Counted from the stretch's first letter, positions 13,501 through 52,145 are shown. The stretch: DNA of 64,000 bases from Candidatus Krumholzibacteriia bacterium (GCA_963836185.1 CAWIIQ010000002.1:320001-384000), one strand, 5' to 3'. Notes: generated by a model from the letters alone, not told the origin. Translations and numbers: made by a program.

Positions 13501-16500
13501 TCTACGTCGCAGTACATCGAGATATGGGTCAACGACTATACGGTGGACCAGGATGACAGGCGGGGAGTGCTGCATATCGATTTCGGAAAGATCGATGAGG
13601 ATTTCCATCAGCCCGAGTTGAACCGGCACGACAACGAGAACGCTATCAACTGGACGAACGAGGCCGACACCGGGTTCGTCGGCGAAAAGTATGAAGATAG
13701 GCCGTTCAACAGGGATTTCAACGAGGACAAGTTCGACGAGGTCATGGGCGTATACATGTGGATCAACTCGAGGTTCGGGAACTCCAGGGCTGACAACGAG
13801 GACATGAACGGGAACGGCCGCCTCGATGAGAGCAACGAGTACTATACCATCGCGCTCGACCTCGCTGACACGGCGATAATCGATGTACAGAGGGATTTCT
13901 CCGGGGTCACCGAATACTGGAATGATCCCGAGAAGGGATCGATCAACAGGCAAAAGAGCTGGAGGATGTACAGGCTCGATATCACCAAGGCGGCGCGGAT
14001 GGGCGACCTGGCTCCCAGGCTCGACAAGATCTCCCATATGAGGATCTGGGTGGAGAACATCGATCAGGTCCAGGCGATCACGCAGACTGACAGGTCCCCC
14101 GATAACATGGTTGAGATCACAGGGGTCAAGTTCGTCGGCAGCAGGTGGGAGTACAACAATGTAAGGGACCTTGCCAATCATGAGGTCCCGATCAATCCCG
14201 ATACCCTGGACCCCGCCCATGAAGGTCAATCTGGGGACGATAAACAACAAGGACAACCCTTCGATCTACACGACGCCATATCCGCCCGATGTCGAGGAAG
14301 GGATACAGAACCGCGAACAATCCCTGCTGTTCGCGGTCGAGAACTTCCATCCGGGCTATTCGTTCAAGTCGATGAAGCGATTCTTCGGGGCAGGGCCTGA
14401 GTTTCATGCAGTACGAGGAGATCCAGTTCTTCATCCGCCCTGACAACGACCTTGTCGGCGGAGTGGCAGAGCAGGACAGTATGGAGTTCTTCCTGCAGAT
14501 CGCATACGACAGCCTCAACTATTATGAGATGGCCATACCCCTCAAGGACGCGCTGGCGAACAAATGGCAGTGGGTCAACATACGGATGAGCGACCTGACG
14601 AACATGAAGATCGACGCGGTGCCCGGCAAGATAACCGAAAAGGAGATCACCGATACGGCCGATCCGTCAATGACATATATGGGGAGGCTCCGGGGCGATC
14701 CCAGCCTGTTCAGGGTGAGATTTCTGTTCGCCGGGATCAGGTATCCTCGCGGAGAAGAAAGGGCGAAGGGTACTCTGTGGTTCAACGACATCGCCCTTGG
14801 ATGGGTGCGCAAGGATATCGATCATGCGGAAAGGGTCGGCTTGTCGGCGAGTTTCGCCAATGTATTGTCATTGAATGCCAGCTACCAGAGGACCGGCCCC
14901 GAGTTCAGGTCGCTGAAGCAGAAGGCAGGAAGCGGCACGACGAGCGACAATTTTCTCATGTCGGGCAAGACCGAGATCAATCACATCATCCCGACACTCG
15001 GGTTCACTATCCCTATCACCGGGAAATACAGCAAGTCGCAGTCGAAGCCGAAGTATCTCTCGCAGAGCGACGTGGAGATTGCCGACGAGGCGGTCCAGGA
15101 ATCGCAGAAGACGATAAGAAACAGTTACTCATACAGTCTCTCAATGAGCAGGCGCGGTTCGAAGAACCTGATAATGAAGCACCTGTTCGACAATCTCAAA
15201 GCGGGCGCCAGTTACTCGAAGTCCAACCTCGCATCGCCGACGGTGCTGGATACGTCGTGGTCATACAGCTGGAACACGAACTACCAGATCCAGTTCAGCA
15301 AGGACCGGAAGCTGAATCTCTTCAAGGGAATCGGTTTCAGGTACTGGCTCACGAGCTTTTCCTACAACGCGGCCGGCTCGAAGGCTCTGAAGAACACATA
15401 TTCGTACAACGGTGAAAGGTATATCAAGAGCCCGACAGGATTCTCGCACAACTGGAACAACGAGATGTCGATGAGCTACGATCCGTTCGAGTCGATCAAG
15501 ATCAACTTCCGGAGGAACGAAAAACGGAACATGATGAATTACCGGGAGTTCTACGGAATTCCCATCGGAAAGCTCTACGACTACAGGGAGAGCTTCGAGT
15601 TTCAGTACCAGCCTCGCGGACAGGTGTGGCTGCTCTCGCAGTTCAACCCGAGATTCGAGTATACATCGCGATACGGAGAGAACCTCAATCCGAGTTTGAG
15701 AGGGCCCGGCGATCCCGAAGACACGAGAAACGTCAGCAGCGAGAGACAGATCAATGTCGTCTTTGATGTCGACATCGGTGGATACGCCATCGATTTCGGT
15801 AAGTTGATCAGGGTGTTCGGTGAAGACGAGACGGCAGTGAGTATGCCAGGATCTTCCGGCGCCACGCTTGACAAGCAGAAGGAGGATTTCAGGAGCAAAT
15901 TCGACGGCAGGGTGAAGTCGGACCAGGGGGAAGGCCTGGGCGAGAGAAAGTCGCTTGTCGATGATGCTCCGCAGCAGGAGCCGCCGCCAGAGGGGCAGGA
16001 AGAAGGTGAACAGGAAGAGAAGAAGGGCGCCTACTCGGATCTGATGGTCCAGAAGCCGCGAGGGGAGATAGCCGGGCTGGGACAACCGAAGACAGACGAG
16101 GAGAAGGCCGCCGAGGCGGATACGATCAAGAAACCGAGGGGGGACTCCTGGAGACTGGTCAAAATGGCCCTGAGGTTTGTCGGCAGGATAGATCCGATAA
16201 AGAGCGCTATCCGTATCGATGACAGGAGCAGCTATCAGCGTCTGTACGAGAGGGCGAGCCTCGCTTACCGTTTCGGTTTCGACCGTGGATCGGGCGTGAT
16301 CGGTTCCTCGTGCACTGAGGAAGAATGTTCGCCTGAGAACGATCCGAACAGAGCTTCGAAGAGGATCAATCTCGATCTCAGGTCGGGCCTCGACCTGACC
16401 AGCAACATCTCGGCCGATATACGCTTCAATATGTCGAGGAACACCGATGAGGCCGATGCCAGGTTGACTGAGTCCGAGAACATGACCTGGCCCGACATAG

Positions 16501-17046
16501 CCGTGAACTGGAAGGGCCTGGAGAACTGGGGGCTGCTCAGAGGACTGGTGAAATCGCAGCAACTTCACTATCAACTATATAAGGAAGACGACGAAGAGTA
16601 TCGCGGTCGACAGGCAGGAATTACGCGTTGAGTCCCAACTGGAGCCTTACCTGGAAGAACACGCTCTCGACGAACCTGTCGTTCTCATTCAGCAAGCAGA
16701 CGAAGATCGAAAAGAACCAGGAGATCTGGGACCAGACATGGTCGGGTAATCTCGAGCTGCGCTACGACATCAAGGGATCGAAAGGGCATATCGATACCCG
16801 GACTCGGCAGCAGGCTGTCGTTCGAAAGTAACTTTGACCACGGTACTTAACCTCGGTTACAGTTCGACGGAGAGCCATAATCTGCCTGCGTCGACTGTCT
16901 TGACGGTCTCTCCCCGTTTCACATATACTTTCAGCCGGAATATTTCGGGAAGCCTGACGCTCAACTACAGGAGGGTGGCAGGCGGCAGGTACGGGTACAT
17001 CAACCACGAGGTCGGGCTTCATGCATCCGCGGAATTCAAATTCTAG
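10573..17046 (+). CDS. sprA: SprA/Sov-family outer-membrane protein (type IX secretion translocon homolog), ~2,100 aa, split by about 4 indels
   Basis: Signal peptide; GTIGEKINV, YTGFDDEIIKLIEMGD, GLFGVK, GEEPTRN, AYIDDMEG, YIEIWV, LHIDFGKIDED, EDMNGNGRLD, LWFNDI; colinear ORFs 10573, 14171, 14406, 16628, 16834; ends ...SAEFKF with a terminal Phe like a beta-barrel. Confidence 0.85.
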
Positions 17047-36227: not shown

Positions 36228-36965
36228 ATGCAAGTGAAGCTTCTGCGATTGTTTTCCGTGATGATACTCGCCATCGTGACAGCGGTCTCACTGACCGGTG
36301 TCGCGTCTGCGCAGACTCATCCATGTGGTGATGGTGCGCTGCCGTACGAGGGCAGCTGGACAGCGCCGGGCGGGGGCCTGCTCGAGGGCAGGATCTCCGA
36401 GGCGTGGTGCTACTCACCATTCTATTCCGGAGTACCCGGCAACACTCTGAACGCGGAGTCTTGGGACGGGGCCGCTCTGGGCACTCAGTGGAAGATATGG
36501 GGAATGTCGATCGACGCCGCCGGCGGTGTCGAAGTCGATCGCGATGTCAACGCATCGGGATTCGGCTGGATCGACTATGTGACGAACTACGAGGGAGGCA
36601 ACTTCTGGCTCGAGGGGAACAATCCCTGGAGCGACGGGACTGACCTCGATGGGTACGTCACGGTCTGCAACGTGAACGCGAGAGTGACTGTCGTGGGCAA
36701 TATGCCCGTAGCAGTCACGTCGAACATCACCATAGTAGGCGTGTTCGACCTCTGTGAGCTGTGCTCGATCGAGATATCCGCAAACTCGACGAGAATGTGG
36801 AAGACCGGGGACGCCGCCGCGATGCCGGCGGGTTATCCGCCCTTCCTCTGCAGCGCTGACAGCGGCGAGCTGCACTATACGTGCTGCCTGACCGCTACGA
36901 TAATGTGCTCCGTGACCGGCACCGAAGAGTCGACATGGGGCGCGATCAAGGATATGTACAGGTAG
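36228..36965 (+). CDS. secreted Cys-rich hypothetical protein with C-terminal TEESTWGAIK tail
   Basis: GGAGG RBS, signal peptide VASA|Q, 9 Cys, paralog of 37129..37845, ends GTEESTWGAIKDMYR. Confidence 0.85.
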   Translation: MQVKLLRLFSVMILAIVTAVSLTGVASAQTHPCGDGALPYEGSWTAPGGGLLEGRISEAWCYSPFYSGVPGNTLNAESWDGAALGTQWKIWGMSIDAAGGVEVDRDVNASGFGWIDYVTNYEGGNFWLEGNNPWSDGTDLDGYVTVCNVNARVTVVGNMPVAVTSNITIVGVFDLCELCSIEISANSTRMWKTGDAAAMPAGYPPFLCSADSGELHYTCCLTATIMCSVTGTEESTWGAIKDMYR

Positions 36966-37128
36966 GTCCGCTGCCTGACATAAGCGAATCCTGAACTTGC
37001 GGGGGTGATACTACTCGCAGTGCTTTTCATCCGGCCCGCTGACGGGAGGTGATCGCAAGGTAGATTCGCAAGACGGGTTTCCGATGGATAGAATGATCCG
37101 TCACTTTATCTGGAACCGGAGGGAAATT

Positions 37129-37845
37129 ATGAAGGTTTTGAAAATGCTGCTCATCGTTGCGGGAATGATGCTTCTCGCGACGGCTGTCTCCGCGCAGTTC
37201 TGCAACTGCGATGTTCAGTACATTCCCAACCAGGGCTACTATTCCACTTACGCGGGAACACTCCTTCCCGGGCGTGTATCCGAGGGATTCTGCGGGACCC
37301 CCGTCAATGGAGGAGTCCCGGGCAACACACAGGATGCCATGTCGTGGGATGGCGCTACCCTGGGCGGGCAGTGGCACGTATGGGGCATGGCGATCGACGC
37401 TGCCGGCGCTGGTGAAACGGGCCGCAGTCTAGACGCGACAGGCACGGGCTGGATCGACTACGTCACGAATTATGACGGGGGCAACTTCTGGCTCAACGGT
37501 GCGTACTTCGGCTCGTCGGGATTGGATTTCACCGGCACGATCTCGTACTACAATGTCAGTGCGAGGGTCAGCCTGCTGTACGGCCAGGTAACCGGTGTCA
37601 CATCGAATGTGACCTTCAACGGTCAGTTCACCGAGTGCGAGTGCTGCTACATCGAATTCGCCATCGCCAACGCGATGAGGGTATGGCCGAACATCGAGGG
37701 CACGTCGATGCCGTCTTTCTACCCGGCGTTCTACTGCGGGCCGACAGGCGAGCTCTTCGATGCCTGCTGCATCCTGATGAGTGTCTCCTGCCCGGTGGGC
37801 ACGGAAGAGACGAGTTGGGGCGCGATCAAGGAGATGCACAAGTAG
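37129..37845 (+). CDS. secreted Cys-rich hypothetical protein (paralog) with C-terminal TEETSWGAIK tail
   Basis: GGAGG RBS, signal peptide AVSA|Q, 10 Cys, shared GVPGNT/SWDGA/GWIDYVTNY.GGNFWL blocks, ends GTEETSWGAIKEMHK. Confidence 0.85.
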   Translation: MKVLKMLLIVAGMMLLATAVSAQFCNCDVQYIPNQGYYSTYAGTLLPGRVSEGFCGTPVNGGVPGNTQDAMSWDGATLGGQWHVWGMAIDAAGAGETGRSLDATGTGWIDYVTNYDGGNFWLNGAYFGSSGLDFTGTISYYNVSARVSLLYGQVTGVTSNVTFNGQFTECECCYIEFAIANAMRVWPNIEGTSMPSFYPAFYCGPTGELFDACCILMSVSCPVGTEETSWGAIKEMHK

Positions 37846-38160
37846 GCCTGCATGGAGACTGTGATTTTTCGGATGTGACGGCCGGGCAAGGGTCGGCCGT
37901 CACACCCGGTTCGAGCATCGTCGGAGGGGCAACCAGGGGATTCAGCGATCACATTACAGGAGTGTGGCTTCTTGTCCGGCTGACGCCGGATCAGGAGGGG
38001 GAGAGGCATTCTTGTCTCGATTTTACACAGGGACTATCCCGAAAACATACATGACAACCGCGAGGGGAGGTATGCGATGACCGGATTGTCACCGTAACCT
38101 CGACCGCAGGGGTACGGGTTTAACTGATAGTTGCTTCTCAACTGTTTAGGAGGGGGTACC

Positions 38161-41100
38161 ATGAAAAGACTCGCGTTAGTGTCCGCACTCTGTCTTCTCG
38201 TCTGCTTTTCGCTGACGGCAGGATCGAAGGCGGCTACTCTGAACGTCCCCGGTGACTACGCAACGGTCCAGGCGGCGATAGACGCGGCGGTAGCTGGTGA
38301 CGAGATCGTCATAGCTGCCGGGACCTGGACTGAGAACATCACAATAAACAAGACTCTCACACTGAAAGGTGCACAGGCCGGTATCGACGCTAGAGGCAGG
38401 ACAGGTTCCGAGACGATCCTGACCTGCGCCTCCGGGCACCTCGTGACAGTCGCCGCGGTCGACGTGGTCCTCGATGGACTCACGATGACCGGTACCGCAG
38501 CGGCCGGACGTCTCGGCAACTGCGACAGCCACGGCTCAGGATTCGAGATGCGCAACTGCGTCATGGACGGAGTCGCGCAGAGAGGTTTCTGGTTCAACGT
38601 CACATCACCGGACATCGTGCTGGAGTACAATGTCTTCGATGCGGCCCTCTGGACCGATTCTTACTCTGTAGCGCACTTCGACGGCTCCGACGTATTCAAC
38701 GATCTGTACATCGGAAACAACGAGTTCACCGGTGGTTCGATCTTCGCCGGGAACGTTACATTCAATTCATCTGGATTCCAGTTAGTCGACAACCTGTTCG
38801 ATGGCTGCTCCATGAATCTCGCATCAGCGTTCGAGAACGCGACTGTTTCGGGGAACATCTTCCGAAACAACGGCTACACGAACATGCAGGCGGCATTCAA
38901 GAACAGCACGATCTCCTACAACCAGTTCGAGGCAACGGGGCCTTCGCCCTACGCGGGCTACCCGTCCGCCTGCCTGCAGTTGTACGGGACAGATTACGGA
39001 TTGGCCTCAACTAATGTGACTATCGAAGGAAACACATTCGAGTTCAACGGTTCTGCCGCGCCGGCCGATCCGGCCAACGGCATACGCTTCCGTGCGGGAC
39101 TCGATGCCTCGACGATCACGGTCCGCGACAACGCCTTCATCGACGGCGGAGCCCAGGCTACCGCCCTTGCGGTGAGGCACCAGGGGACCGGCGACGCTGA
39201 CGCCTCCGGCAACTGGTGGGGATCGAATGATCCTGCTGGCGTGAACGCGCTTGCCAACGGCGGAACGCTCGTCGATTACACCCCGTGGCTCGATACTGGT
39301 ACGGACAACCGTCCCGGGATCGGCTTCGAGGGCGATTTCTCCGCTCTGCACGTCGATGACGACAGCCCCCAGACGGGCATCGTCGGGATCGCGCAGGAGG
39401 GTATCGACCTCGTCGACGGCAGCACCGTCTATATCCATGACGGCACCTACGAGGAGCAGCTTGATATCGGCAAGGATCTCGTCCTCCAGGGAGACGGCCT
39501 GGGTACGGAGATCCTCTCACCCGATCTTCTGGCGCTCTCATGGGCCACGAGCAAGGATTATCGTGCGATCATATATATCCATGATGCTGATGCCGAGATC
39601 CGCGACATAACACTGAACGGAGCCGGCAAGGGGAACGCGAATACAGGGTTCCTCGGTGTCGGGTTCAGGAACGCGGGCGGCGGCATCTATGACTGCGATA
39701 TCCTCGACATCCGAAACACGCCGTTCAGCGGCGCACAGTATGGTGTCGGTATCAGTTCCTGGAACGACGATCTGACCTCACGGTCGATCGATGTCCACGG
39801 CTGTACGCTCACCGGATTCCAGAAGAACGCTATGGCGCTCAATGCCGACGTGACGACAGGCCTTGCGGTCGATGTCCGCGGTAACACGATCACCGGTGCG
39901 GGCGCGACTACAGTAACAGCGCAGAACGGTGTGCAGGTCTATGGTGACATCGCCACCGGTACCATAGCGGACAACGTCATAAGCGGGATCGCTTACGACA
40001 ATACAGCCGATGTCACGAAGTGGGTAGCGACCAGCATCCTGAATTACTATGCTGATGTCGATATCACCGGCAATACGATCACGGCTGCCCACATGGGTAT
40101 CTACAATATCGACGGTGCAGGCCTGATCAGCGAAAACGACCTGACGATCGAGAAGATCGGTGTATACGCTTTCGGTATCATCGGCAGCGATCCGCCGAAG
40201 GCTGTTCCCTCTCCGGCAGGGATGGATGACATGCCAGTCGGTTCTTCGAGGCCTTTCGACGGGGCGCCTCTCGCCCTGCTCGATGTCGACATACTCGACA
40301 ATGTCGTGACATTCACCGGCCCTGACAATACGGCGACCTTCGGTATCGAAGTAGATGCCGGCTGGGGACCGAATGATCTCGATGCGACGATCAATGGAAA
40401 CATCGTCACCGGTTTCGAGGTTGGTATCGAGGTATATACCTGCGAGAGCGGTTGCGCCGCCGGTATCTTCACCGCGGTCGATGCCAGATTCAACGGCCTG
40501 TTCAGCAATACACTGGCTGTCCGTTCGAATGTCGACACGATCACAGTCGATGCCTCGGGCAACTGGCTCGGATCAAACGTCCCCGCGGCGCTCATCGCGG
40601 GTACACTCGATTACACTCCGTGGCTCGACGTCGGAACAGACATGAGTACCGACATCGGGTTCCAGGGTGATTTCTCCGCCCTGCACGTCGATGACGACAG
40701 CCCGCAGACGGGCCTTGTCGGAATCGTGCAGGAGGGAATCGATATGGTCGACGGCAGCACCGTCTACATCCACGACGGTACATACGAGGAGCAGCTCGAG
40801 ATCACAAGCGATCTCGTCCTTCAGGGAGACGGCGCGGGGACTGTGATCCTTTCGCCAGACGCCCTTCCGCTCTTCTTTACCACGGGTACACTCAACAACT
40901 ACCCGGTCGTCTATATCCACGACACAGACGATGTGGAGATAAACGATCTCACCGTCGACGGCGCGGGAAAGGGTAACGCGAACTACAGGTTCCTCGGGAT
41001 CGGATACCGCAACGCAGGCGGAGGAGTCTACGACTGCTCGATCCTCGGGATCATGGACACCCCGTTCAGCGGCGCGCAGCACGGCGTAGCGATGTACTTG

Positions 41101-44016
41101 TACAACGATGACCTGACTACAAGGTCGATCGACGTACATGGGACTACGATCACCGGGTTCCAGAAGAACGCTATGGCGCTGAACGCGGAGCGAACGACAC
41201 CTCTCGCCGTCGATGTGCGAGACAACATTATTACCGGTGCCGGAGAGACCGGCGTTACGGCCCAGAACGGTATCCAGGTCTCGGCGGCCCTTGGTACCGG
41301 CGATATCGAAGACAATGTGATATCGGGAATCGCTTACAACGGCGGCAGCTGGGTCGCTACCTCGATCCTCAGCTACTACGGCGTTCACGCGATAGACGGC
41401 AACACGATCACCGGTTCCCATATGGGAATCTATAATATCGATGGAGCGGGAACGATCTCGGGGAACGATGTCGAGGTCGAAATGATCGGTGGTTACTGCT
41501 GGGGTATCGTTGCCAGCGATCCACCGAAACTGAAGCCATCTCCGTTCGTCGAAGAAGAGGCTCCGCTGACCTCGGGCAGGGATATGCTCAAGGCCCCGCT
41601 AGCCGTTCTCGACGTAGATGTCATTGGCAACACGGTGACGAATGTCGGAACGACTGTCGCAGGCACATACGGCATCGAGGCCGACGCCGGATACGGTCCC
41701 GACGACCTCGACATCACGATCAGTTACAACACTGTCTGTAACTTCGAGGCCGCGATCGAGTTCTGGGTCTGCCAGAGCACCTGCGACACGGGTGTCTTCA
41801 CCAGCGCTGTGGCCAACTACAACTATATAGGCTGCGGCAATACGTACGGTATCCGCTCTAACGCCGATTATCTCATGGTAGACGGCACGAACAACTGGTG
41901 GGGCGACGCATCCGGGCCTTATCACGCCACGCTCAATCCGACCGGTACGGGAGACGCTGTCTCCGATTACGTCGACTTTGATCCGTGGCTGGGTGCTCCC
42001 AACCAGCTCAGCGTAGTGCCGGCCTACGGCACGACGAACTGTCTCGATCCGATCACCTACACCTTCTGGCTCGACCATGTCGGTGTGGATGAGGTACGCG
42101 GAATCGACGTGACCTTCCAGGTCGACGGCGCGGTAGTGTCGGTCGGCAACGTATCGACTGATATCGTCGAAGGATCGTACCTGCCCGGAATCGGCGGGAC
42201 GACCTTCTTCGCTCTCGACAATGGCGGCGGAGAGTATCAGATCAGCACGTCGATCCTCGGCGGGACCACCGGCGCCACAGGTTCCGGCGATCTCTTCACG
42301 GTAGTATTCACGCCTGTGGCCGAGGGACTCAGCGCGATCACGATCACCGACCTCAAGGTCCGTGACGTGAACAACGTGCCTCTCAGCGTGGCGATGGTCG
42401 ACGGAGAGGTCCGCATCGACTGCACCGGGCCGACGATGGAGCCGATCGCCGAGGCGGAGGGCGTCTGCTACAACGTGGCGCCCACATTCGCGAACTTCGG
42501 ATTCGACGATGACCAGGCGCTCGACTGGGCCGAGTACCAGATCGACGCGGATGGATGGGTCACGATATTCACCGGCATCGATGTGCCCGAGTGGAACGAC
42601 GACGGCTGGGCGCTGCCCGGCTTCGCCGGACTCTCGGAAGGGAGCCACACCGTTTACTTCCGCGTGGCAGACATGGCGGGGAACGAGAACGGAGAGGGCA
42701 CCCCTGATACGTACAGCTGGTCGTTTATCAAGGATACCGTGCCGCCGGCGGCGCCTTCCGGATTCTCGGCGATGCCGGGCCACAACAAGGTCCATCTCGC
42801 CTGGACGAATCCCACGGGCGACGCTTCGTTCGTCGGCGTGGAGATCAGGCTCGTCGCATGGGGCGACTATCCCCAGTATATCACCGCGCCTTCGTACCCC
42901 GCCGATCATCTCGGCGGAACGTTCGTCACGCAGGTGCCCGGTGAGTCGTTCGACGACGATCCGCGCGCACCGCGCGACATCTATTACTACGCGGCATTCT
43001 CGTACGACTGCGCCGGCAACTACTCGGTCTTCGACGCAGGAGCGGCGGACAGGTCGACGAGCTACTGGCTCGGCGACATCTTCGCCGGGTATGACGGCCT
43101 CGTCAACTTCAACGATCTCGGAGATTTCTCCAACGCGTTCGGCTCTACAGAGGGCGGAGGCGGAGGATGGATCGCCGAGGCGGACTTCGGGCCGACCGAC
43201 GACTGGTCGAGGTTCGGAATACCTCTGCCCGACGACGCGATCGACTTCGAGGACCTGATGATCTTCTCGATGAACTACGGCAACGTGGATCCCCTGGGAT
43301 TCGACTTCGTGCCTGAGGAGAGATCGACGGAGAACCTCGAGAACATGGTCGCCTTCGATCTCGTTCCCACGACTACCGATGCGGGAACGATCGTCTCGAT
43401 CATGATGAGCAGCCGCGCCTCGACACTGAAGGGCGCGAGGCTGGTCATCGAGACTGGCGACGGATGCGAGATCGTAAATATCTCGAAGGGTGACGCTGTC
43501 GCCACGCGCGGCGATGTCTTCTTCGGGACTATCCCCTCGTTCGGCGGCATGGAGGTCTGCCTCTCGGCGCTCGGCGTCGACAAGCCTCTTGCAGGCTCCG
43601 GCGAGGTCGCGAAGATACTCGTAAAGAGTGAAGGTTCGATAAACGTCTCGCTCGCCGAGGCCGATATCAGGGATATCGAGAACAGGCAGTTCGTTCTCGA
43701 GGGGACCGGCAGTTATGAAGGCCCCGAGGTCCCGATAGCCGACGCGCTTAACCAGAACTTCCCGAACCCGTTCAACCCGGCGACAACGGTCGCCTTTGAC
43801 CTGGCGAAGCCCGCTTCGGTCAGGATAGGGATCTACGACGTCTCGGGACGCCTGGTAAGGACGCTTATCGACAGAAGCATGGAGGCCGGGAGTCACGAGG
43901 TCGGCTGGAACGGTACGAACAATATGGGTACCGGTGTTCCCAGCGGCATGTACTTCTACAGGATGACGACATCCGACGGCTTCACGGCTACAAGGAAGAT
44001 GATCCTGCTGAGGTAG
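38161..44016 (+). CDS. giant secreted protein (~1,950 aa): parallel beta-helix repeats, cohesin-like, Ig/FN3-like and dockerin-like modules, T9SS/FlgD-Ig C-terminal domain
   Basis: Signal peptide; VPGDYATVQAAIDAA..GD.I.IAAGTWTENITI; N/D/G-rich beta-helix turns; GSGDLFTVVF cohesin-like block; paired DGLVNFNDL/DDAIDFEDL loops; QNFPNPFNP...IYDVSGRLVRTL...SGMYFYRM...RKMILLR. Confidence 0.88.
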   Translation: MKRLALVSALCLLVCFSLTAGSKAATLNVPGDYATVQAAIDAAVAGDEIVIAAGTWTENITINKTLTLKGAQAGIDARGRTGSETILTCASGHLVTVAAVDVVLDGLTMTGTAAAGRLGNCDSHGSGFEMRNCVMDGVAQRGFWFNVTSPDIVLEYNVFDAALWTDSYSVAHFDGSDVFNDLYIGNNEFTGGSIFAGNVTFNSSGFQLVDNLFDGCSMNLASAFENATVSGNIFRNNGYTNMQAAFKNSTISYNQFEATGPSPYAGYPSACLQLYGTDYGLASTNVTIEGNTFEFNGSAAPADPANGIRFRAGLDASTITVRDNAFIDGGAQATALAVRHQGTGDADASGNWWGSNDPAGVNALANGGTLVDYTPWLDTGTDNRPGIGFEGDFSALHVDDDSPQTGIVGIAQEGIDLVDGSTVYIHDGTYEEQLDIGKDLVLQGDGLGTEILSPDLLALSWATSKDYRAIIYIHDADAEIRDITLNGAGKGNANTGFLGVGFRNAGGGIYDCDILDIRNTPFSGAQYGVGISSWNDDLTSRSIDVHGCTLTGFQKNAMALNADVTTGLAVDVRGNTITGAGATTVTAQNGVQVYGDIATGTIADNVISGIAYDNTADVTKWVATSILNYYADVDITGNTITAAHMGIYNIDGAGLISENDLTIEKIGVYAFGIIGSDPPKAVPSPAGMDDMPVGSSRPFDGAPLALLDVDILDNVVTFTGPDNTATFGIEVDAGWGPNDLDATINGNIVTGFEVGIEVYTCESGCAAGIFTAVDARFNGLFSNTLAVRSNVDTITVDASGNWLGSNVPAALIAGTLDYTPWLDVGTDMSTDIGFQGDFSALHVDDDSPQTGLVGIVQEGIDMVDGSTVYIHDGTYEEQLEITSDLVLQGDGAGTVILSPDALPLFFTTGTLNNYPVVYIHDTDDVEINDLTVDGAGKGNANYRFLGIGYRNAGGGVYDCSILGIMDTPFSGAQHGVAMYLYNDDLTTRSIDVHGTTITGFQKNAMALNAERTTPLAVDVRDNIITGAGETGVTAQNGIQVSAALGTGDIEDNVISGIAYNGGSWVATSILSYYGVHAIDGNTITGSHMGIYNIDGAGTISGNDVEVEMIGGYCWGIVASDPPKLKPSPFVEEEAPLTSGRDMLKAPLAVLDVDVIGNTVTNVGTTVAGTYGIEADAGYGPDDLDITISYNTVCNFEAAIEFWVCQSTCDTGVFTSAVANYNYIGCGNTYGIRSNADYLMVDGTNNWWGDASGPYHATLNPTGTGDAVSDYVDFDPWLGAPNQLSVVPAYGTTNCLDPITYTFWLDHVGVDEVRGIDVTFQVDGAVVSVGNVSTDIVEGSYLPGIGGTTFFALDNGGGEYQISTSILGGTTGATGSGDLFTVVFTPVAEGLSAITITDLKVRDVNNVPLSVAMVDGEVRIDCTGPTMEPIAEAEGVCYNVAPTFANFGFDDDQALDWAEYQIDADGWVTIFTGIDVPEWNDDGWALPGFAGLSEGSHTVYFRVADMAGNENGEGTPDTYSWSFIKDTVPPAAPSGFSAMPGHNKVHLAWTNPTGDASFVGVEIRLVAWGDYPQYITAPSYPADHLGGTFVTQVPGESFDDDPRAPRDIYYYAAFSYDCAGNYSVFDAGAADRSTSYWLGDIFAGYDGLVNFNDLGDFSNAFGSTEGGGGGWIAEADFGPTDDWSRFGIPLPDDAIDFEDLMIFSMNYGNVDPLGFDFVPEERSTENLENMVAFDLVPTTTDAGTIVSIMMSSRASTLKGARLVIETGDGCEIVNISKGDAVATRGDVFFGTIPSFGGMEVCLSALGVDKPLAGSGEVAKILVKSEGSINVSLAEADIRDIENRQFVLEGTGSYEGPEVPIADALNQNFPNPFNPATTVAFDLAKPASVRIGIYDVSGRLVRTLIDRSMEAGSHEVGWNGTNNMGTGVPSGMYFYRMTTSDGFTATRKMILLR
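39274..41990 (+). repeat. intragenic ~1.33-kb (~445 aa) tandem duplication of a beta-helix module
   Basis: DYTPWLD.GTD...GDFSALHVDDDSPQTG.VGI.QEGID.VDGSTVYIHDGTYEEQL begins at ~39274 and ~40609. Confidence 0.9.
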
Positions 44017-44027
44017 TACCTCAGGAT

Positions 44028-44063
44028 CGGTGCGGGGAGCGGCCGTTCCGTTTCCCCGCACCG
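44028..44063 (+). other. strong intergenic stem-loop without U-tract
   Basis: CGGTGCGGGGA (44028-44038) / TCCCCGCACCG (44053-44063). Confidence 0.75.
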
Positions 44064-44072
44064 GTGATCTTC

Positions 44073-44914
44073 ATGGAGAAAAGATTGAAAAGACTGAAGT
44101 CAATGATCAGCAGCAGGGCAGGGGCCGCAACGGCGGCCCTCGCCCTCTGTCTGCTCTTTCCGGCACCTGCCGCGGCGCAGACCATTTCCGTATGGGTCGA
44201 ACCGGCGGAGACGAGGGTCGCACCGGGCGAATTCTGTACGCTGTATGTCCATGTCGACGATCAGGTCGATTCGCTGAGTTGCGCGGAATGCTGTCTCGGA
44301 TTCGATTCGACGGTCGTATCCTTTGTTTCCGCCCGCCAGGGGCAGCTCTACGACGAGGCGCCTTTCCCGAAGTTCTTCGACCTCGACGAGCCGTCGGCGG
44401 ATTCGGTCCTGGCCACCGTCTGCGTACTGGGATACCGCTCTTATATCATCGCTCCGGGGAGTATCTTCGAGGTAAGGTTCGAGGCGCTCTCTCCCGGGGT
44501 GACCGATGTGGAGATCGGGCGCATCTCGGTGCTCGACATCGACAGGGTCCCGCTCAGACGAGGAAGTCGGGCAGGCTGGAAGGATAATCGTCACGACACA
44601 GACTGGCGGCACGGTCCCGCCGGCGGAGGAGGGAAGGCTGTCCAACTTTCCCAACCCGTTCAATCCGGTCACGACGATAGTACTCGAGCTTCCAGGCGGA
44701 AGCGGGGATCGACTCTCTACGGATATCAGGATATACGACGCGTCAGGCAGGACCGGTGCGCAGCCTTTTCAGCGGCGCGGCTCCCGCCGGGCGCAGCGAA
44801 TTTCAATGGGACGGTATGAGCGACTCCGGCTCGGCCGTAAGTTCCGGTCTGTACATGGCGGTCTCGAGGACCGGGACGCTGAGGCTGGAGAGAAAACTGG
44901 TACTTATACGTTAG
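44073..44914 (+). CDS. secreted cohesin-like domain plus T9SS/FlgD-Ig C-terminal domain (frameshifted twice)
   Basis: Signal PAAA|Q; LGFDSTVVSFV..QG, PGSIFEVRFEAL..G; next frame NFPNPFNPVTTI..IYDASGR; final frame WDG...SSGLY...RKLVLIR* (TAG 44912-44914). Confidence 0.75.
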
Positions 44915-44929
44915 GATCGGGAGAAGACT

Positions 44930-45475
44930 ATGACACTTATGAGATACAACGTCCTTCTGGCAGCCGTGGCGCTGCTCGCGATGGCTTCAAGCCCCGCCAT
45001 GGCCGATGAACTGTATTTCTCGCCGGCAGACACGATGATCTGGGACTACGCTCCCTTTCCCGTTCATGTCATGATCGATGACGTAGACAGTCTCATGGGC
45101 TGGGATATATCGGTATCGTTGACCGGGAATCCCTGCGTGAAGATACTGGGTGTCATCGAAGGCTCCCTTCCAGGCAGTAACGGCGACGAGACATTCTTCT
45201 ACTGGCTCGATCAGTTGAACCCCGGCTCCATCCATGTGAACGGATCTGTCCTCGGTACAGTCGTCGACGGCCCCGGAATCCTCTTTACGATATACTTTCA
45301 GGCTCTTCTGCCGGGTGTAGCATGGCTCGACTTCACAGACTCCGAGCTGCGCAACGGCGTCAACAGCAGCCTGGCACATGTCAGCGACAAGCGGGCGCGC
45401 ATCGAGGTCCTCGAAGCGATAGCCACGGAGGAAACGACCTGGGGAGCGATAAAGTCGGTCTGCCGCGATCGATGA
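44930..45475 (+). CDS. secreted cohesin-like domain protein with C-terminal TEETTWGAIK tail
   Basis: Signal PAMA|D; VHVMIDDVDSL.G.DI, EGSL, GPGILFTIYFQAL.PG; ends ATEETTWGAIKSVCRDR. Confidence 0.8.
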   Translation: MTLMRYNVLLAAVALLAMASSPAMADELYFSPADTMIWDYAPFPVHVMIDDVDSLMGWDISVSLTGNPCVKILGVIEGSLPGSNGDETFFYWLDQLNPGSIHVNGSVLGTVVDGPGILFTIYFQALLPGVAWLDFTDSELRNGVNSSLAHVSDKRARIEVLEAIATEETTWGAIKSVCRDR

Positions 45476-45620: not shown

Positions 45621-48600
45621 TTGAATATCCATTCCAGGACACGCAGGGGTGTCTCTATCGCGGCCCTGGCCGCGTTCGCTGCCGTTCTCGCCGCCGGAAT
45701 CTCCATGGCGGGGGAGAACGAGGATCTCCGTTTCGCGAAAAGGCTGCAGGGTGACAGGATGTTCGTCGCCGCGGCGGAGGAGTTTCTACGGTTCTCCGAG
45801 AAATACCCGGCCAGCACACTTCGAGCCTCGGCCCTCTTCTCGGCCGGCGAATGCTGGATGCAGGCAGGGAGGGCGAACGACGCCCTGGCATCATTCGAAA
45901 GACTTCTGTCCGATTACCCCGATGACGTGAACGCCTGCAAGGCGAGGTACTATCGCGGCACCATACTCAAGGCCCTGAAGAAGTTCAGGGAGGCTGCCGA
46001 TGAGCTGATGATGATACCGGAAGCTTCGGGAGGTTGTCCCCTCGAGGGGAAAGCCCTTCTCGAGGCGGGGGAATGTCTTGTCGCAGCCGGCGATCCGCGC
46101 GAAGCGGTGACTGTCCTGAGACGTGTCTCCGACCCGGCGAGGTATCCCGACCAGGCATCGAGAGCGGGGTACAGCCTCGCGGTCGCGCTCGAGAGATCGG
46201 GCAGGGATCTCGAAGCGGAGAAGATACTGAAGGAAACGGTCGACAAGTATCCGAAGTCGCCGGTGGCCGCCCTTTCGATGATGAAGCTCGGCGACAGGTC
46301 CCTGGCCAGGGGTGAATATGACGAGGCCGCCCGGTATTTCAGGCAGGCGGCGGAAGACTACGAGGAGGATTCCCTCCGCGAAAAGGCGATGTCGAAGCTG
46401 CTCGAAGCGGCTGAAGGGGCGGGGGATAAGGAAACGGTCCTGAAGACATCCGAAGAATACCTCAAACTCTTCCCCGACGGCGCGGGCAGGCCCCGGGCCT
46501 ATGAGCTCGGGATATTAGCCGCCAGGGAGACCGGAGACCGTGACAGGGCGATATCGATGATCGATTCGTGGCGGTCCGAAGAGGGGTACTCCGACCCGGA
46601 GGGAGAGTTCAGCCTGGTGAGGGCATCTCTCCTCGAGGAAAAAGGAAAGACTGAAGATGCCCTTGCAGAGCTTGCATGGTTCAGGCGCTCATATCCAGCC
46701 TCAGGATTTCTCGTCGACGCTCTCCTTCTTGAAGGGCGCCTCCTTGAAAAATCTAAAAAATATGAAGATGCCCTGCACCGCTATAATGTCGCGCTGGCTG
46801 AGGGAGCCTCCGGCGAAGAGAAGCTCGAGACCCTCGATCGCCTGGCGGAGATATCGGTCGTCCAGGAAGCCGATACCCTTTCCGCATTGAGATACTGGTC
46901 GATGATCGCCTCGGCTGACCGGGGCGGAGAAAAGGGTGAGGAGGCGCTCTGGCGCTCGGCAGGGGTAAGGGAGGCGGCGGGCGATATGCGTGGCGCGGCT
47001 GCCGATCTTCGCAGGATAGAGAAGGAATATACAGGCGGCAGATATGCCGTCGAGGCCGCTGAGAAAGCGGGCAGGATCGAGCTGCTTGCCGGCCCGGGTG
47101 GAGACGCTGAAGGAGCGCTCGCCCGTCTCGCTGTCGATGCCTCCATCACCGGCGGGGCGCGATATCTCGAGGCTGGAAGGATCCTCCTCGAGGAGGCGGG
47201 AAGGTTCAGGGAGGCTGCCGTATATCTCGAGAGGGCGATCGGGTCCGATCTGCCTGACGCCGAAAAGGCGAGGGCAAGGTACTATCTCGGCAATGCCCGG
47301 GCCCTCGGGTACGAGATATCTGGCGCGACAGGCAGCCCGGACGACGGCTTGAAGAAGAGCGCGATCGATGAGTGGTGGAAGGTAGCGCGAGAGGCCCCCG
47401 GCACTGAATGGGGAGGAAAATCGCACCGCGCGTGGCTCGGATACAGGCTCGATGAATGGGACATCAACGGGAAACTGAAGAGGCTCAACGAGTTTCTCGG
47501 CTATTACGGTTCGGACGGCGGGCACTACTGGTGGGCGCAGGAGAAGAAGCTCGAGAGTCTTTACGACGCCGCTCCAGGAAGGGACAACTGGGCGGCAGAC
47601 AGCGCGCTGACGATCGCGGGGCTGTTCCTTGACAATACCTCGCCGAAGGATGGAAAGAAGGAGGCTCTTCTCAGGTCGGGTTACCTCTACCGGATGACCG
47701 GTGATACGGAAAGAGCCGAATCGGCGCTCGCTTCGTTCGCGCGGACTTATCCTGACGATTACAGGACCGCGTCGGTCTATTACGATCTCGGCGAGACAAG
47801 GCTCAAGAGAAAAGATTACGCGAAGGCGCTCGAGGCCTACCAGTCATGCCTGACGAGGGATCCCCCGAGGAATCTCGCGGGCAGGTGCCTGCTCCGCTCG
47901 GGAGACTGCCTCTACTATACGCACGAATATGCTGGGGCTGCGGGGAAATACGCCGCCCTCGCGAGCCACGATCCTCCGACCGGGCTCGAAGACGAGGCGT
48001 CTTACAGGCAGGCCCTCGCCCTGAGGCAGGCCGGGAGGGGGGACGAGGCCGATGCTATACTCGGTTCCCTTTTCAAACGCGAAGATCTGCCCGCCGGGTT
48101 GCGGGCGCGGGTCCTCGAACTCACCGGCCGCCGGATGATCGATACGGGAGACTACGCATCGGCACGCGGAGTCTTCGAGGAACTCTGCAGCGCCCGCAAG
48201 AGTCCGGGTCCGCTGACGCTGCTCGGTGAGACGCTTCTCGAACTCGATCAGACGAAAGAGGCGGCCAGGCGTTTCGATGAGGCGATCAAGCTCGAGGGTG
48301 CCGACACCTGCCGTATACTCTCCGGGAGGTCGAGGTCGTACTTCGCCGCCGGTGACGACGAAGAAGGGAAACCGCGATCTCGACGAGATGACAAGGCTCT
48401 GCCCCGGCTATCCCGGGACCGCGCTCGCCCTTCTGGCGCGCGGCGAATCGGCTGTCGAGGCGGGAGACTGCGAGGGTGCTGTCGCGACCCTCGAATACCT
48501 TCGTGAGCACTATGCCGGGACCGATGCGGCGGCGGGCGCCCTCTACCAGCTCGCTCTCTGCGATGTGCGCAGGGGAGGGTATGCCGAGGCGATAGAGAAG

Positions 48601-49269
48601 CTCGGGTTATTCCTGCGGGAGTCACCCGAATCTCCCCTGACCGGCCAGGTCTATTTCAAACTGGCCACGGCACACTACGCCTCGGGGAGCAGGAATCTCG
48701 CCGCGGTGAATTATGCGCTTGCCGCTGAATCGACGGCCGACCGCGACACGAAATTCACAGCGTTGTCGAACCAGGCCCGTGTCTACCAGGAACTCGAGGA
48801 ATGGGGGAAAGCGGGCGATGTCTGGAAAGATGTGACCGGGCAGTTCCCCGAGAGGGATGACATCGTGGAGATATTCTTCAACCTCGGATTCTGCTACAGC
48901 CAGTCGGGTGACTTCGAGCTGGCCTGGGAGGTGTACCGCAGGATACCGGCTGTCGCGCTGAACGAGGAACAGCAGGGAAGGGCCCATTACTGGGCCGGAA
49001 TATCACTAAAATATCTCAACCGCTGCGAAGAAGCGATCCGAGAGTTTCTCCGTGTCCCCTACCTGAGGACGGGAGGGATGTGGGGGGTCACCTCCAAGCT
49101 CGAGGCGGCGGTCTGCTACGAGAAACTTGGACGCGTCGATGAGGCGAAAAGCATATACGCGCAGGTAGTCTCGGCCCACGGCGAGAAATCCGACTGGGGC
49201 TCGATGGCGAAGAAGTCCCTCGACAGGCTGGAGGCGGGAGAGCAGCAGCCGGAAAACAACGAAGAGTGA
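45621..49269 (+). CDS. large exported TPR-repeat protein (~1,200 aa; indel near 48370)
   Basis: Signal peptide; repeated A..F..LL..YP..A.Y..G TPR units; ORFs 45621..48506 and 48226..49269 are colinear. Confidence 0.8.
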
Positions 49270-49300
49270 TCAGCAGGTGACGTGCAGGAAGGGCAGCCGA

Positions 49301-52145
49301 ATGGCTCGTGAAGACCTCGTCGTCAGAGGCGCCAGGGAACACAATCTCAAGAATATCACAGTGACCGTGCCGCGCGGGAAGCTCGTCGTGATAACGGGGC
49401 TGAGCGGTTCGGGCAAGTCGTCTCTCGCCTTCGATACGATCTATGCCGAAGGGCAGAGACGTTATGTCGAGTCGCTGTCGAGCTACGCGAGGCAGTTCCT
49501 CGAGCAGATGGAGAAACCGGACGTCGACTCGATCGAGGGACTCTCGCCGGCGATCTCGATCGACCAGAAGACCACCTCGAGGAATCCCCGTTCTACGGTC
49601 GGGACGATCACCGAGATCCATGACTACCTCAGGGTCCTCTTCGCCCGCGCCGGCGAGCCTCACTGTCCCGGGTGCGGGCGCCCGATCAGCCGCCAGACCG
49701 TCGCGCAGATCGTCGACAGGCTGACCGCCGCCGGAGAGGGAAAGAAGCTCGTCATCATGGCCCCCGTAGTGAGGGGGCGCAAGGGTGAGCACAAGGCCCT
49801 GCTGGCGAAGCTGGCGAAGGAGGGCTTCGCGCGGGTGAGGGTCGACGGTGAGATGCACGACCTGGGCGACGAGATCGCCATCGACAAGAAACGCAAGCAC
49901 GATATAGAAGTGATAGTCGACCGCGTCATAATCAAGGATGGCGTCGAGAGGCGGCTGGCCGACTCGGTCGAGACAGCGGCGAAGGCGGGAGAAGGGATAA
50001 TCCTTGTCCAGCAGGGAGGAGAGGAGACCCTGTACAGTCTCGAGTACGCCTGCCCGTGGTGCGGCGGCGGACTCGGCGAGATATCACCGAGGATGTTCTC
50101 GTTCAACTCCCCGTACGGGGCCTGCCCGACATGCCACGGCCTCGGCACTACGAACGATTTCGCCGAGGAGCTTCTCGTGCCCGATCCGACCCTCAGTGTT
50201 GCCGAGGGAGCTCTCGCATCGATAGGATCGCCGAAGGCGAACTGGTACAGGCTGCGGCTCGAGGCACTCGCCGAGCTGCATGGTTTCTCGCTGACAAGAC
50301 CTTTCGGCAAGCTCTCGAAGAATGCCCGCCGGATGATACTCGAGGGGACCGACGACGAGATAGTCGTCCAGTACGATTTTGAACGGGGCAAGGGGGAGTA
50401 CTACACAAATTGGGAGGGTGTCGTCCCGAACCTCCGCCGCCGGTATCACCAGACCCGCTCCGATGCGATAAGGCGCTGGATCGAGACGTTCATGACTTCG
50501 AGTCCATGCTCTGACTGCCATGGAACACGGCTGAAGCCCGATAGCCTCTCCGTTACCCTCGCCGGCAGGAATATCGCCGAGATATCGTCTCTGACTATCG
50601 AGAGGGCGTCGGAGTTCTTCGGATCGCTCGGCCTCGAGGGGAACAGGGCGATCATCGGCGGCCCGCTCCTTCGTGAGATCACTTCGAGGCTGCAGTTCCT
50701 CCGCAACGTCGGCCTCGACTACCTCTCGCTCGATCGTTCCGCCGGAACGCTTGCCGGCGGCGAGGCGCAGAGGATCAGGCTCGCCACGCAGATAGGCTCG
50801 AAGCTCGTCGGTGTCCTCTACATACTCGACGAACCGTCGATCGGCCTTCATCAGCGCGACAACGCGAGGCTGATCGCTACGCTCAAGGAACTGCGGGACG
50901 CGGGCAATACAGTTATCGTCATCGAGCACGACAGGGACACGATCCTCGCGGCCGACTACGTCATCGATCTCGGGCCCGGCGCGGGAGAGCACGGTGGCGA
51001 AGTGGTCGCCGAAGGGACTCCGGCAGGAATATCCACCGTCAAGGAAAGCCTCACCGGGAAGTACCTCTGCCAGCGAGAGATACTTCGAGCTGAAGAGCGG
51101 CGAAGGGAGGGGCACGGGCGAGTCGCTCATCCTCAGGGGCGCGAGCGAGCACAACCTCAAGGAAATAGACGTCGAGTTCCCTCTCGGCAGGCTGATATGC
51201 GTCACCGGCGTCTCCGGCTCGGGCAAGAGCACACTCGTCGGGGATATCCTCTACAGGGCCCTTCACAGGATATTCCATCGAAGCACGAGGCTCGCGGGGA
51301 GGCACGACAGGATCGACGGCGTCGAACATATCGACAAGGTGATCAACATAGACCAGTCTCCGATCGGGCGGACGCCGAGGTCGAATCCCGCTACATACAC
51401 GGGGCTGTTCGGCCCGATCAGGGATCTTTTCTCCAGGCTCCCCGAGTCGCAGGTCCGCGGCTACAAGCCGGGGAGATTCAGCTTCAACGTCAAGGGCGGA
51501 AGGTGCGAGACGTGCAGGGGAGAGGGGATGATCAAGGTAGAGATGCATTTTCTCCCCGACGTCTATGTCCACTGCCAGCAGTGCAAGGGCAGGCGCTACA
51601 ACAGGGAGACCCTCGAGGTCACATTCAAGAACATCAATATCGCCGAGGTACTCGAAATGACCGTTGACGAAGCGTTCGATTTCTTTAAGAATATCCCCTC
51701 CGTCAGGAGAAAGCTGAAGGTGCTCAGGGAGGTCGGGCTCGGGTACATCCGGCTGGGGCAGCCGGCGACGACGCTGTCCGGGGGCGAGGCGCAGAGGGTC
51801 AAGCTCTCGTCCGAGCTTTCCAAGGTGAGCACCGGAAGGACGCTGTATATACTGGACGAGCCGAGCACAGGCCTTCACTTCGAGGACGTCAAGATGCTGA
51901 TGAGTGTTCTCGACAGGCTCGTCGAGAGGGGAAACACGGTGCTCGTCATAGAGCACAATCCGGATATCATCAGGCTCGCCGATCATATCATCGACCTCGG
52001 CCCCGAGGGCGGGGAACGTGGCGGCGAGGTAGTATACACCGGTTCACCGGCCGGCATCACTGGCTGCCGGGATTCGCACACAGGCGAGATGCTCAAGCAG
52101 TATGTGCGGGCCGGGAAAAAGAAAAGTAAAAAGAACAAGTCCTGA
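49301..52145 (+). CDS. uvrA: excinuclease ABC subunit A (indel near 51070)
   Basis: [67 protein letters not shown]. Confidence 0.97.

Follow-up and report, generated by a model that had tools for sequence, protein, structure and literature searches.

Cohesin-fold and dockerin-fold modules on type IX secretion cargo of a Candidatus Krumholzibacteriia bacterium: a possible non-cellulosomal surface complex

Cohesin-dockerin pairs rank among the strongest known protein-protein connectors, and to our knowledge what has been learned about them comes almost entirely from Gram-positive cellulose degraders. In Clostridium thermocellum, the type II X-dockerin of CipA (X-DocII) binds the single-cohesin anchor SdbA. 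The locus described here lies in a 64,000-nt stretch of DNA (the window, to which all coordinates refer unless a contig is named), part of contig C2 of the 3.5-Mb, 6-contig genome (G000) of a Candidatus Krumholzibacteriia bacterium; of the close relatives of the window's proteins, one is annotated Candidatus Krumholzibacteria and another Ca. Krumholzibacteriales. It consists of a giant gene for a cargo protein of a type IX secretion system (T9SS), whose product carries two cohesin modules and one dockerin-like module, and of two small genes following it, termed genes 2 and 3, each with a single cohesin. Together they may form a non-cellulosomal complex at the outer surface of a diderm.

The locus has much in common with the type II X-dockerin pair (CipA with SdbA or OlpB; PDB 2b59, 3kcp and 4fl4). 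In both, an immunoglobulin-like (Ig-like) module abuts the dockerin, and chains of these three structures are among the structural matches of the window's dockerin model, where type II X-dockerin chains are frequent. Also alike is that the dockerin-bearing protein itself carries cohesins, and that a small protein encoded nearby (gene 2) combines a cohesin with an anchoring domain. That domain is a T9SS C-terminal sorting domain (CTD) on a diderm here, whereas it is an SLH domain on a monoderm there; in the present case no enzymes are recruited and the dockerin loops are expanded. The placement of the dockerin differs as well, being C-terminal in CipA and here between modules, with a cohesin following. 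The NagH-NagJ pair of Clostridium perfringens (2ozn) and a cohesin of Archaeoglobus fulgidus (2xdh) provided the best structural matches of the window dockerin and of gene 3, respectively, and both stand, as would the complex proposed here, for a role outside cellulose degradation. Their hosts are a monoderm and an archaeon without a T9SS, the sequence identity to the window modules is 15-26%, and we know of neither the cassette nor the operon described below in these systems.

Two further systems come close in other respects. In the Ruminococcus bromii amylosome, Amy4 has a cohesin and a dockerin in one protein, and self-recognition was shown experimentally; Amy4, from a monoderm, is a glycoside hydrolase family 13 (GH13) amylase that pairs a single cohesin with a C-terminal dockerin (PMC4611034), whereas the giant protein has no enzyme, two cohesins and a CTD. 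For the Cloacimonadota member 'Ca. Stygibacter', like the window's organism a diderm of the wider Fibrobacteres-Chlorobi-Bacteroidetes (FCB) group, a cellulosome-like system was inferred from genomes, with a cohesin protein carrying a T9SS-type CTD for surface attachment; it comprises a scaffoldin of 3,755 aa, in which tandem cohesins are accompanied by carbohydrate-binding modules (CBMs), and many dockerin-bearing enzymes (PMC8542988). The present system, by contrast, involves one or two dockerin proteins in each genome and lacks enzymes, and its features are a fixed cohesin-Ig-dockerin-cohesin-CTD cassette and a conserved operon of three genes. Non-cellulosomal cohesin-dockerin pairs are thus already known, and so is the idea of a T9SS-cargo complex in a diderm (Cloacimonadota, PMC8542988). 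What is new is that the cassette is fixed, that the operon includes two dedicated cohesins tagged differently at the C-terminus, and that the occurrence extends over the phylum; among the papers searched, none paired cohesins with Krumholzibacteria.

The C-terminal part of the giant protein was used as a query (residues 1280-1870) against 1.84 billion representative sequences; 1,860 proteins matched at E<=0.001, of which 279 also reached E<=1e-30. The matches sit just before the C-terminus of proteins whose N-terminal parts are very diverse. Using profiles cut out of an alignment (A2) of 35 cassette relatives, the module borders could be set (Table 1), and the order was found to run from a cohesin through the Ig-like region, the dockerin-like module and a second cohesin to a T9SS type A sorting domain. 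An earlier, sequence-only reading of the window had placed a cohesin-like block at ~42001-42420, a duplicated loop segment at ~43072-43281 and a second cohesin-like block at ~43350-43690 ahead of the CTD, and the profiles recovered all three. Its claim that the protein is T9SS-type cargo was likewise borne out: the CTD scores 35.2 bits against TIGR04183 (cut-off 23) and 44.8 bits against FlgD_ig (cut-off 27), PorU is encoded in the genome (554 bits, cut-off 420), and SprA (TIGR04189) lies inside the window itself (308.6 bits with neighbours in frame included, cut-off 200). The Ig-like region gave weak Big_13, HYR and PKD matches, and the cassette profile matches PDB 2yn3_A at 2.6e-7. This region abuts the dockerin in the manner of an X-dockerin, the two being 1 residue apart in 92 of 135 modules. 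The stretch that links the dockerin to the cohesin is short, its median length being 8 residues outside the model ends, and it is not Pro/Thr-rich. That the cassette might be a general anchor of the genome's T9SS cargo was considered and dismissed, because 125 six-frame open reading frames (ORFs) of the genome match the CTD profile and only one carries this dockerin.

Table 1. Features of the giant gene, the small cohesin genes and their upstream neighbours in the 64,000-nt window
Feature	Residues of giant	Window coordinates	Strand	Basis or content
Cys-rich exported protein, first tandem paralogue		36228-36965	+	ends in Trp tail TEESTWGAIKDMYR
Cys-rich second Trp-tail paralogue		37084-37845	+	tail motif
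Giant T9SS cargo gene		38131-44016	+	ORF, 1,961 residues
Giant N-terminal cargo part		38161-41970	+	first a beta-helix-like module, then two tandem repeats
Cohesin module I	1290-1434	41998-42432	+	profile envelope; contains GSGDLFTVVFTPVAEG
Ig-like 'mid' region	1435-1638	42433-43044	+	profile
Divergent dockerin module	1641-1722	43051-43296	+	profile; two loop-helix repeats
Cohesin module II	1738-1857	43342-43701	+	profile
T9SS type A C-terminal sorting domain	1875-1961	43753-44013	+	TIGR04183
Gene 2		44064-44914	+	signal peptide, cohesin (~44187-44561), T9SS CTD (~44644-44911)
Gene 3 (P0003)		44930-45475	+	signal peptide, cohesin fold (gene 3 residues ~25-160), Trp tail
Gene 3 C-terminal Trp tail		45425-45472	+	TEETTWGAIKSVCRDR; conserved short tail

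The cohesin fold was modelled for gene 3, and modules I and II and gene 2 were tied to it by profile matches. The AlphaFold model of gene 3 has a predicted local distance difference test score (pLDDT) of 80.3, and the Foldseek matches listed for it (the best 50, with 265 at E<=0.001) are all cohesins, the best of those listed being 2xdh with an E of 1e-9 and template modelling (TM) scores of 0.62/0.79. The four classes (modules I and II, genes 2 and 3) match one another's profiles at 1e-5 to 1e-14, the gene-3 family profile matches module I at 3e-5, and one distant gene-3 relative carries a precomputed match to Pfam Cohesin (PF00963). The latter family was also found in the cassette relatives, where its matches coincide with module I or II; 17 of 42 relatives exceed its curated cut-off of 24.1 bits and 5 more stay under it. 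The module I equivalents in P0109 and P0115 are above the cut-off, as are the module II orthologues in many relatives. Over module II the cassette profile (A2) gave weak, consistent matches to PDB cohesins (2xdh at 0.0019), and single-sequence PDB searches with module I, or with the dockerin plus cohesin II, gave nothing relevant. In a maximum-likelihood (ML) tree of 39 cohesin modules, the four classes sort with 3 label changes, which is the minimum, and the split between the stand-alone cohesins of genes 2 and 3 and the internal cohesins has 96/96 support; divergent rows from one genome (G028) sit on long branches. There are thus four old, separately conserved cohesin classes.

The dockerin-like module contains an internal duplication, its two halves aligning as profiles (hhalign) with a local probability of 91.6% and a P of 8.4e-7 over 20 columns. 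In the AlphaFold2 model, two helices (model residues 31-40 and 77-86) each follow a loop. The model was compared with 48,161 representative chains using VIA-align, and all 15 chains with Z>=2 were dockerins, the best being 2ozn_B (Z 6.1, root-mean-square deviation 1.7 over 55 residues, 26% identity); in Foldseek, the nine matches at E<=10 were without exception dockerin-containing chains. By sequence, the PDB dockerin matches of the cassette profile are weak (2y3n_B at 0.016), and an NCBIfam scan of the modules returned only dockerin_GC at an E of 0.42, which is not meaningful. By its predicted fold the module is a divergent dockerin and not a PF00404 member, because the fold and the duplication hold but Pfam and the loop spacing fail. 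The identities proposed earlier were therefore upheld for both module types, with cohesin folds in the one and, in the other, a dockerin fold that is internally duplicated; generic Ig or CBM folds had been named as the outcome that would speak otherwise, and the structure searches listed cohesins and dockerins, not CBMs or EF-hands. At the level of Pfam families, Cohesin was found in the relatives, was under its cut-off or gave no match in the window modules, and Dockerin_1 was not found.

The sequence-only reading had further described the next two genes as stand-alone cohesin-like proteins. Each does have a single cohesin; the description has to be amended in that gene 2 adds a T9SS CTD and gene 3 a tryptophan-containing (Trp) tail. 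The gene-3 family comprises 43 proteins at E<=0.001 (gene 3 included), 44-82% identical and mostly of ~180 aa, and in 23 aligned sequences W171 and K175 of the tail are invariant. Gene order was examined at loci from 13 genomes. The full triad of giant, cohesin with CTD and cohesin with tail was seen in seven of them (G000, G008, G018, G019, G020, G021 and G022), another five loci are partial or cut by contig ends yet consistent with it (G001, G002, G003, G005 and G007), and in G028 the small cohesin is on the opposite strand. Among 31 relatives, the dockerin plus cohesin II query was found in 12 and the gene-3 family in 14, with both present in 11 of the 12. Conserved gene order and co-occurrence support the functional link that had been suggested between the giant and the two small cohesin genes. 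In G007, locus L013 (G007:C1:170000-189900) contains the system twice, with ~10 kb between the sets; one of the gene-2 orthologues there has two cohesins ahead of its CTD, and the second giant is without cohesin I.

The combination of dockerin and cohesin II is widespread in the uncultured phylum, matching in 86 of 151 sampled genomes (71 of the 117 high-quality ones), with as many as 6 matches in a single genome, frequently in adjoining genes. The best 150 representatives were examined, and 132 of them carry the dockerin. Twelve representatives consist of mid region, dockerin and cohesin, with or without a CTD, cohesin I being absent. Public names for members of the cluster are limited to 'hypothetical protein', 'T9SS type A sorting domain-containing protein' or 'HYR domain-containing protein'. 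In the window's own genome, this dockerin type occurs in the giant only. The idea that the giant's dockerin is the sole dockerin of the genome was dismissed, since a second one, recognised by Pfam, is present in another beta-helix gene. This is a large beta-helix/PKD gene on contig C1 (~353121-358010, + strand), broken into three frames, the end of which encodes a cohesin-like module, the dockerin that Pfam recognises at 28.5 bits, a cohesin scoring 25.1 bits and a T9SS CTD, that is, the module order of the window cassette in a more canonical sequence version. An additional ORF with a cohesin and a CTD is found at C1:734611-735390.

The reading preferred here is that the giant's single dockerin docks on one of the operon cohesins, giving a non-cellulosomal complex on the outer surface; it is put forward tentatively, as a proposal whose probability falls somewhat short of even. 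By analogy with CipA, the Ig-like region and the dockerin would act as an X-dockerin dyad, and this dyad would bind the stand-alone cohesins of gene 2, with its T9SS CTD, and gene 3, with its Trp tail. The products of these genes would then serve as cell-bound anchors or adaptors, and the internal cohesins I and II would stay free for other copies of the giant or for the one other dockerin protein of the genome. We infer that such a complex would be adhesive or structural and not catalytic; Pfam and NCBIfam scans of the giant recognised no glycoside hydrolase or other enzyme family, in agreement with what had been noted from the sequence before. Docking on the stand-alone cohesins is favoured over other partners because the operon is conserved, because the stand-alone and internal cohesins fall into separate classes, and because the arrangement resembles that of CipA X-DocII and SdbA.

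A number of observations weigh against this reading, and they concern the identity of the modules, the state of the genes and the arrangement within the chain. Against Pfam Cohesin, module I (E 9.5e-4, 19.8 bits) and the gene 2 cohesin (E 4.5e-4, 20.9 bits) stay under the cut-off, module II and gene 3 themselves gave no match, and the gene-3 family profile returned no cohesin from the PDB by sequence. Confidence in the model of the dockerin is only moderate (pLDDT 68.8), its Z values are modest (a Z of 6.1 can be reached by unrelated small domains), and its best Foldseek E is 0.027, with none below 0.001; Pfam Dockerin_1 (PF00404) has no match in the window segment at E<=10 and none in the 42 cassette relatives at E<=0.01. 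The canonical dockerin calcium loop has 12 residues with a set position pattern. In loop 1 of the window module there are 5 residues, not the canonical 3, between the first Asp and the Asp-Gly, the canonical spacing being found in only 14 of 135 family modules, and loop 2 carries an insertion that is 11 residues long in 93 of the 135; calcium binding is uncertain because both loops are longer than the canonical one. Gene 2 can be read through here only by changing frame (+1) at two places, near 44556 and near 44753, each a single extra base relative to G003 and G008. Its orthologues (279-320 aa) are intact in one frame, and the insertions are probably assembly errors, a view taken because uvrA, sprA and a tetratricopeptide repeat (TPR) gene in the window also look split. 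Gene 3 is without a CTD, and the giant, which has its own CTD, is without an obvious need of an anchoring partner. The low sequence identity to solved cohesins (9-18% for gene 3 in Foldseek, among the matches listed), the scores under the Pfam cut-offs, the non-canonical loops and the weakness in absolute terms of the dockerin's structure matches would all suit an explanation without any cohesin-dockerin binding, in which the cohesin folds are Ig- or CBM-like spacers or glycan binders, the dockerin-like segment is an insert that is structural or stabilised by calcium, and the operon encodes just a collection of surface proteins. This is judged improbable, given that the structure searches list only cohesins or only dockerins, that both folds occur in one chain across more than half of the sampled phylum genomes, and that stand-alone cohesins are conserved beside the sole protein with this dockerin.

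The arrangement within the chain leads to a more serious rival, serious because a cohesin nearly always follows the dockerin directly in the same protein: this is so in 127 of the 132 representatives, and of the five others four end at or near the dockerin. In this rival, which the sequence-only reading had not raised, the dockerin might bind cohesin II of the same chain as an intramolecular clasp, making mid region, dockerin and cohesin a rigid stalk that leads from the cargo to the CTD, with the small cohesin proteins having another ligand or role. One representative, P0177 (2,234 aa), carries four tandem mid-dockerin-cohesin units before a single CTD, and in this array the three modules therefore behave as one repeating unit. 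The short linker points the same way, as do the dispensability of cohesin I, since dockerin and cohesin II are kept together in the twelve representatives mentioned and in the second giant of G007, and the same dockerin-cohesin-CTD order in the second dockerin protein of the genome. The clasp is nevertheless regarded as doubtful, because the conserved triad, and three more conserved cohesin classes, would then have no dockerin partner in a genome where only two dockerin-bearing ORFs were found. The presence of a dockerin and two cohesins in one chain would also permit head-to-tail self-polymerisation, as the sequence-only reading had suggested, the dockerin binding a cohesin of the next copy of the giant to build a surface fibre or lattice that the small cohesins cap or anchor. 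A self-recognising precedent is available in R. bromii Amy4 (PMC4611034), and the genome has few dockerin proteins and several cohesins; these data also suit the clasp and anchor models, nothing observed demands polymers, and polymerisation is considered unlikely. No better a prospect is seen in the broader view that mid region, dockerin and cohesin would be a self-complementary block building fibres or lattices throughout the phylum, with stand-alone cohesins as anchors by means of a CTD or of a not previously described 15-residue Trp tail exchangeable with it as an address tag. Finally, the presence of cohesins and a dockerin, together with the CTD-bearing scaffoldin system inferred in Cloacimonadota (PMC8542988), could be taken to indicate a true cellulosome-like scaffold gathering dockerin-bearing hydrolases. 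This is very improbable, as no enzyme family was seen in the giant, and as the two dockerin-bearing ORFs found in the 3.5-Mb genome are both beta-helix proteins with cohesins and a CTD.

The giant protein probably starts at the ATG at 38161 (MKRLALV..., a signal peptide). The two tandem repeats of its N-terminal cargo part, ~430 aa each (39313-40620 and 40621-41970), are 62% identical to each other. A match to the NosD family (NCBIfam) at residues 47-122 has an E of 3.7e-9 and lies far below the cut-off of that model, and the Atlas look-alikes of the N-terminal part, which serve as a lead only, are NosD/Beta_helix clusters with scores of 0.95-0.96. A PDB sequence search with the N-terminal 820 residues gave zero matches.

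The Trp tail of gene 3 has the consensus ~TEEsSWGaIK plus 3-5 residues, and it is not confined to this gene. Six-frame ORFs of at least 80 residues were searched for the pattern [ST]W[GS]x[IVLM]K followed by up to 8 residues to the end, which terminates 31 of 18,482 ORFs; when the last 40 residues were shuffled 20 times, an average of 0.45 such endings resulted (range 0-3), and the pattern occurs internally 4 times. None of the 31 tail ORFs has a CTD match, and 23 have a signal-peptide-like start by a crude hydrophobicity test, some of these starts lying far inside the ORF. The tail letters, used as a literature search, found no paper. Sister cohesins of which one ends in a CTD and the other in the tail are consistent, at the level of sequence, with the tail standing in for the CTD. 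The set also includes both Cys-rich paralogues encoded upstream of the giant, which are ~250 aa long and 46% identical to each other, belong to no Pfam or NCBIfam family, and gave an uninformative best score of 0.76 in an Atlas search with one Cys-rich tail protein. Proteins with the same ending, 'YPDFLC...GEL.D.CC', adjoin the triad in G021, G020 and G018, and for this reason the Cys-rich tail proteins may be part of the same system.

Other genes of the window appear interrupted as well. SprA is split over two ORFs in different frames (10573-14400 and 14406-16631), probably by an indel, uvrA is split over two overlapping frames (49277-51667 and 50994-52145), and the TPR gene (45621-48506), whose C-terminal stretch looks odd, overlaps with another TPR frame at 48226-49269. 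Taken together, gene 2, uvrA and the TPR gene suggest that single-base indel errors are frequent in the assembly. A search of sequencing runs for the window found small shares only, at most 0.09 of the words, and no RNA run among those listed.

If the proposed docking is true, the cohesin-dockerin system would be extended to outer-membrane surfaces and to non-enzymatic cargo, and new orthogonal connector pairs would become available for protein engineering. The paralogous cohesins, bearing either a T9SS CTD or a Trp tail, offer a testable case on the role of the tail.

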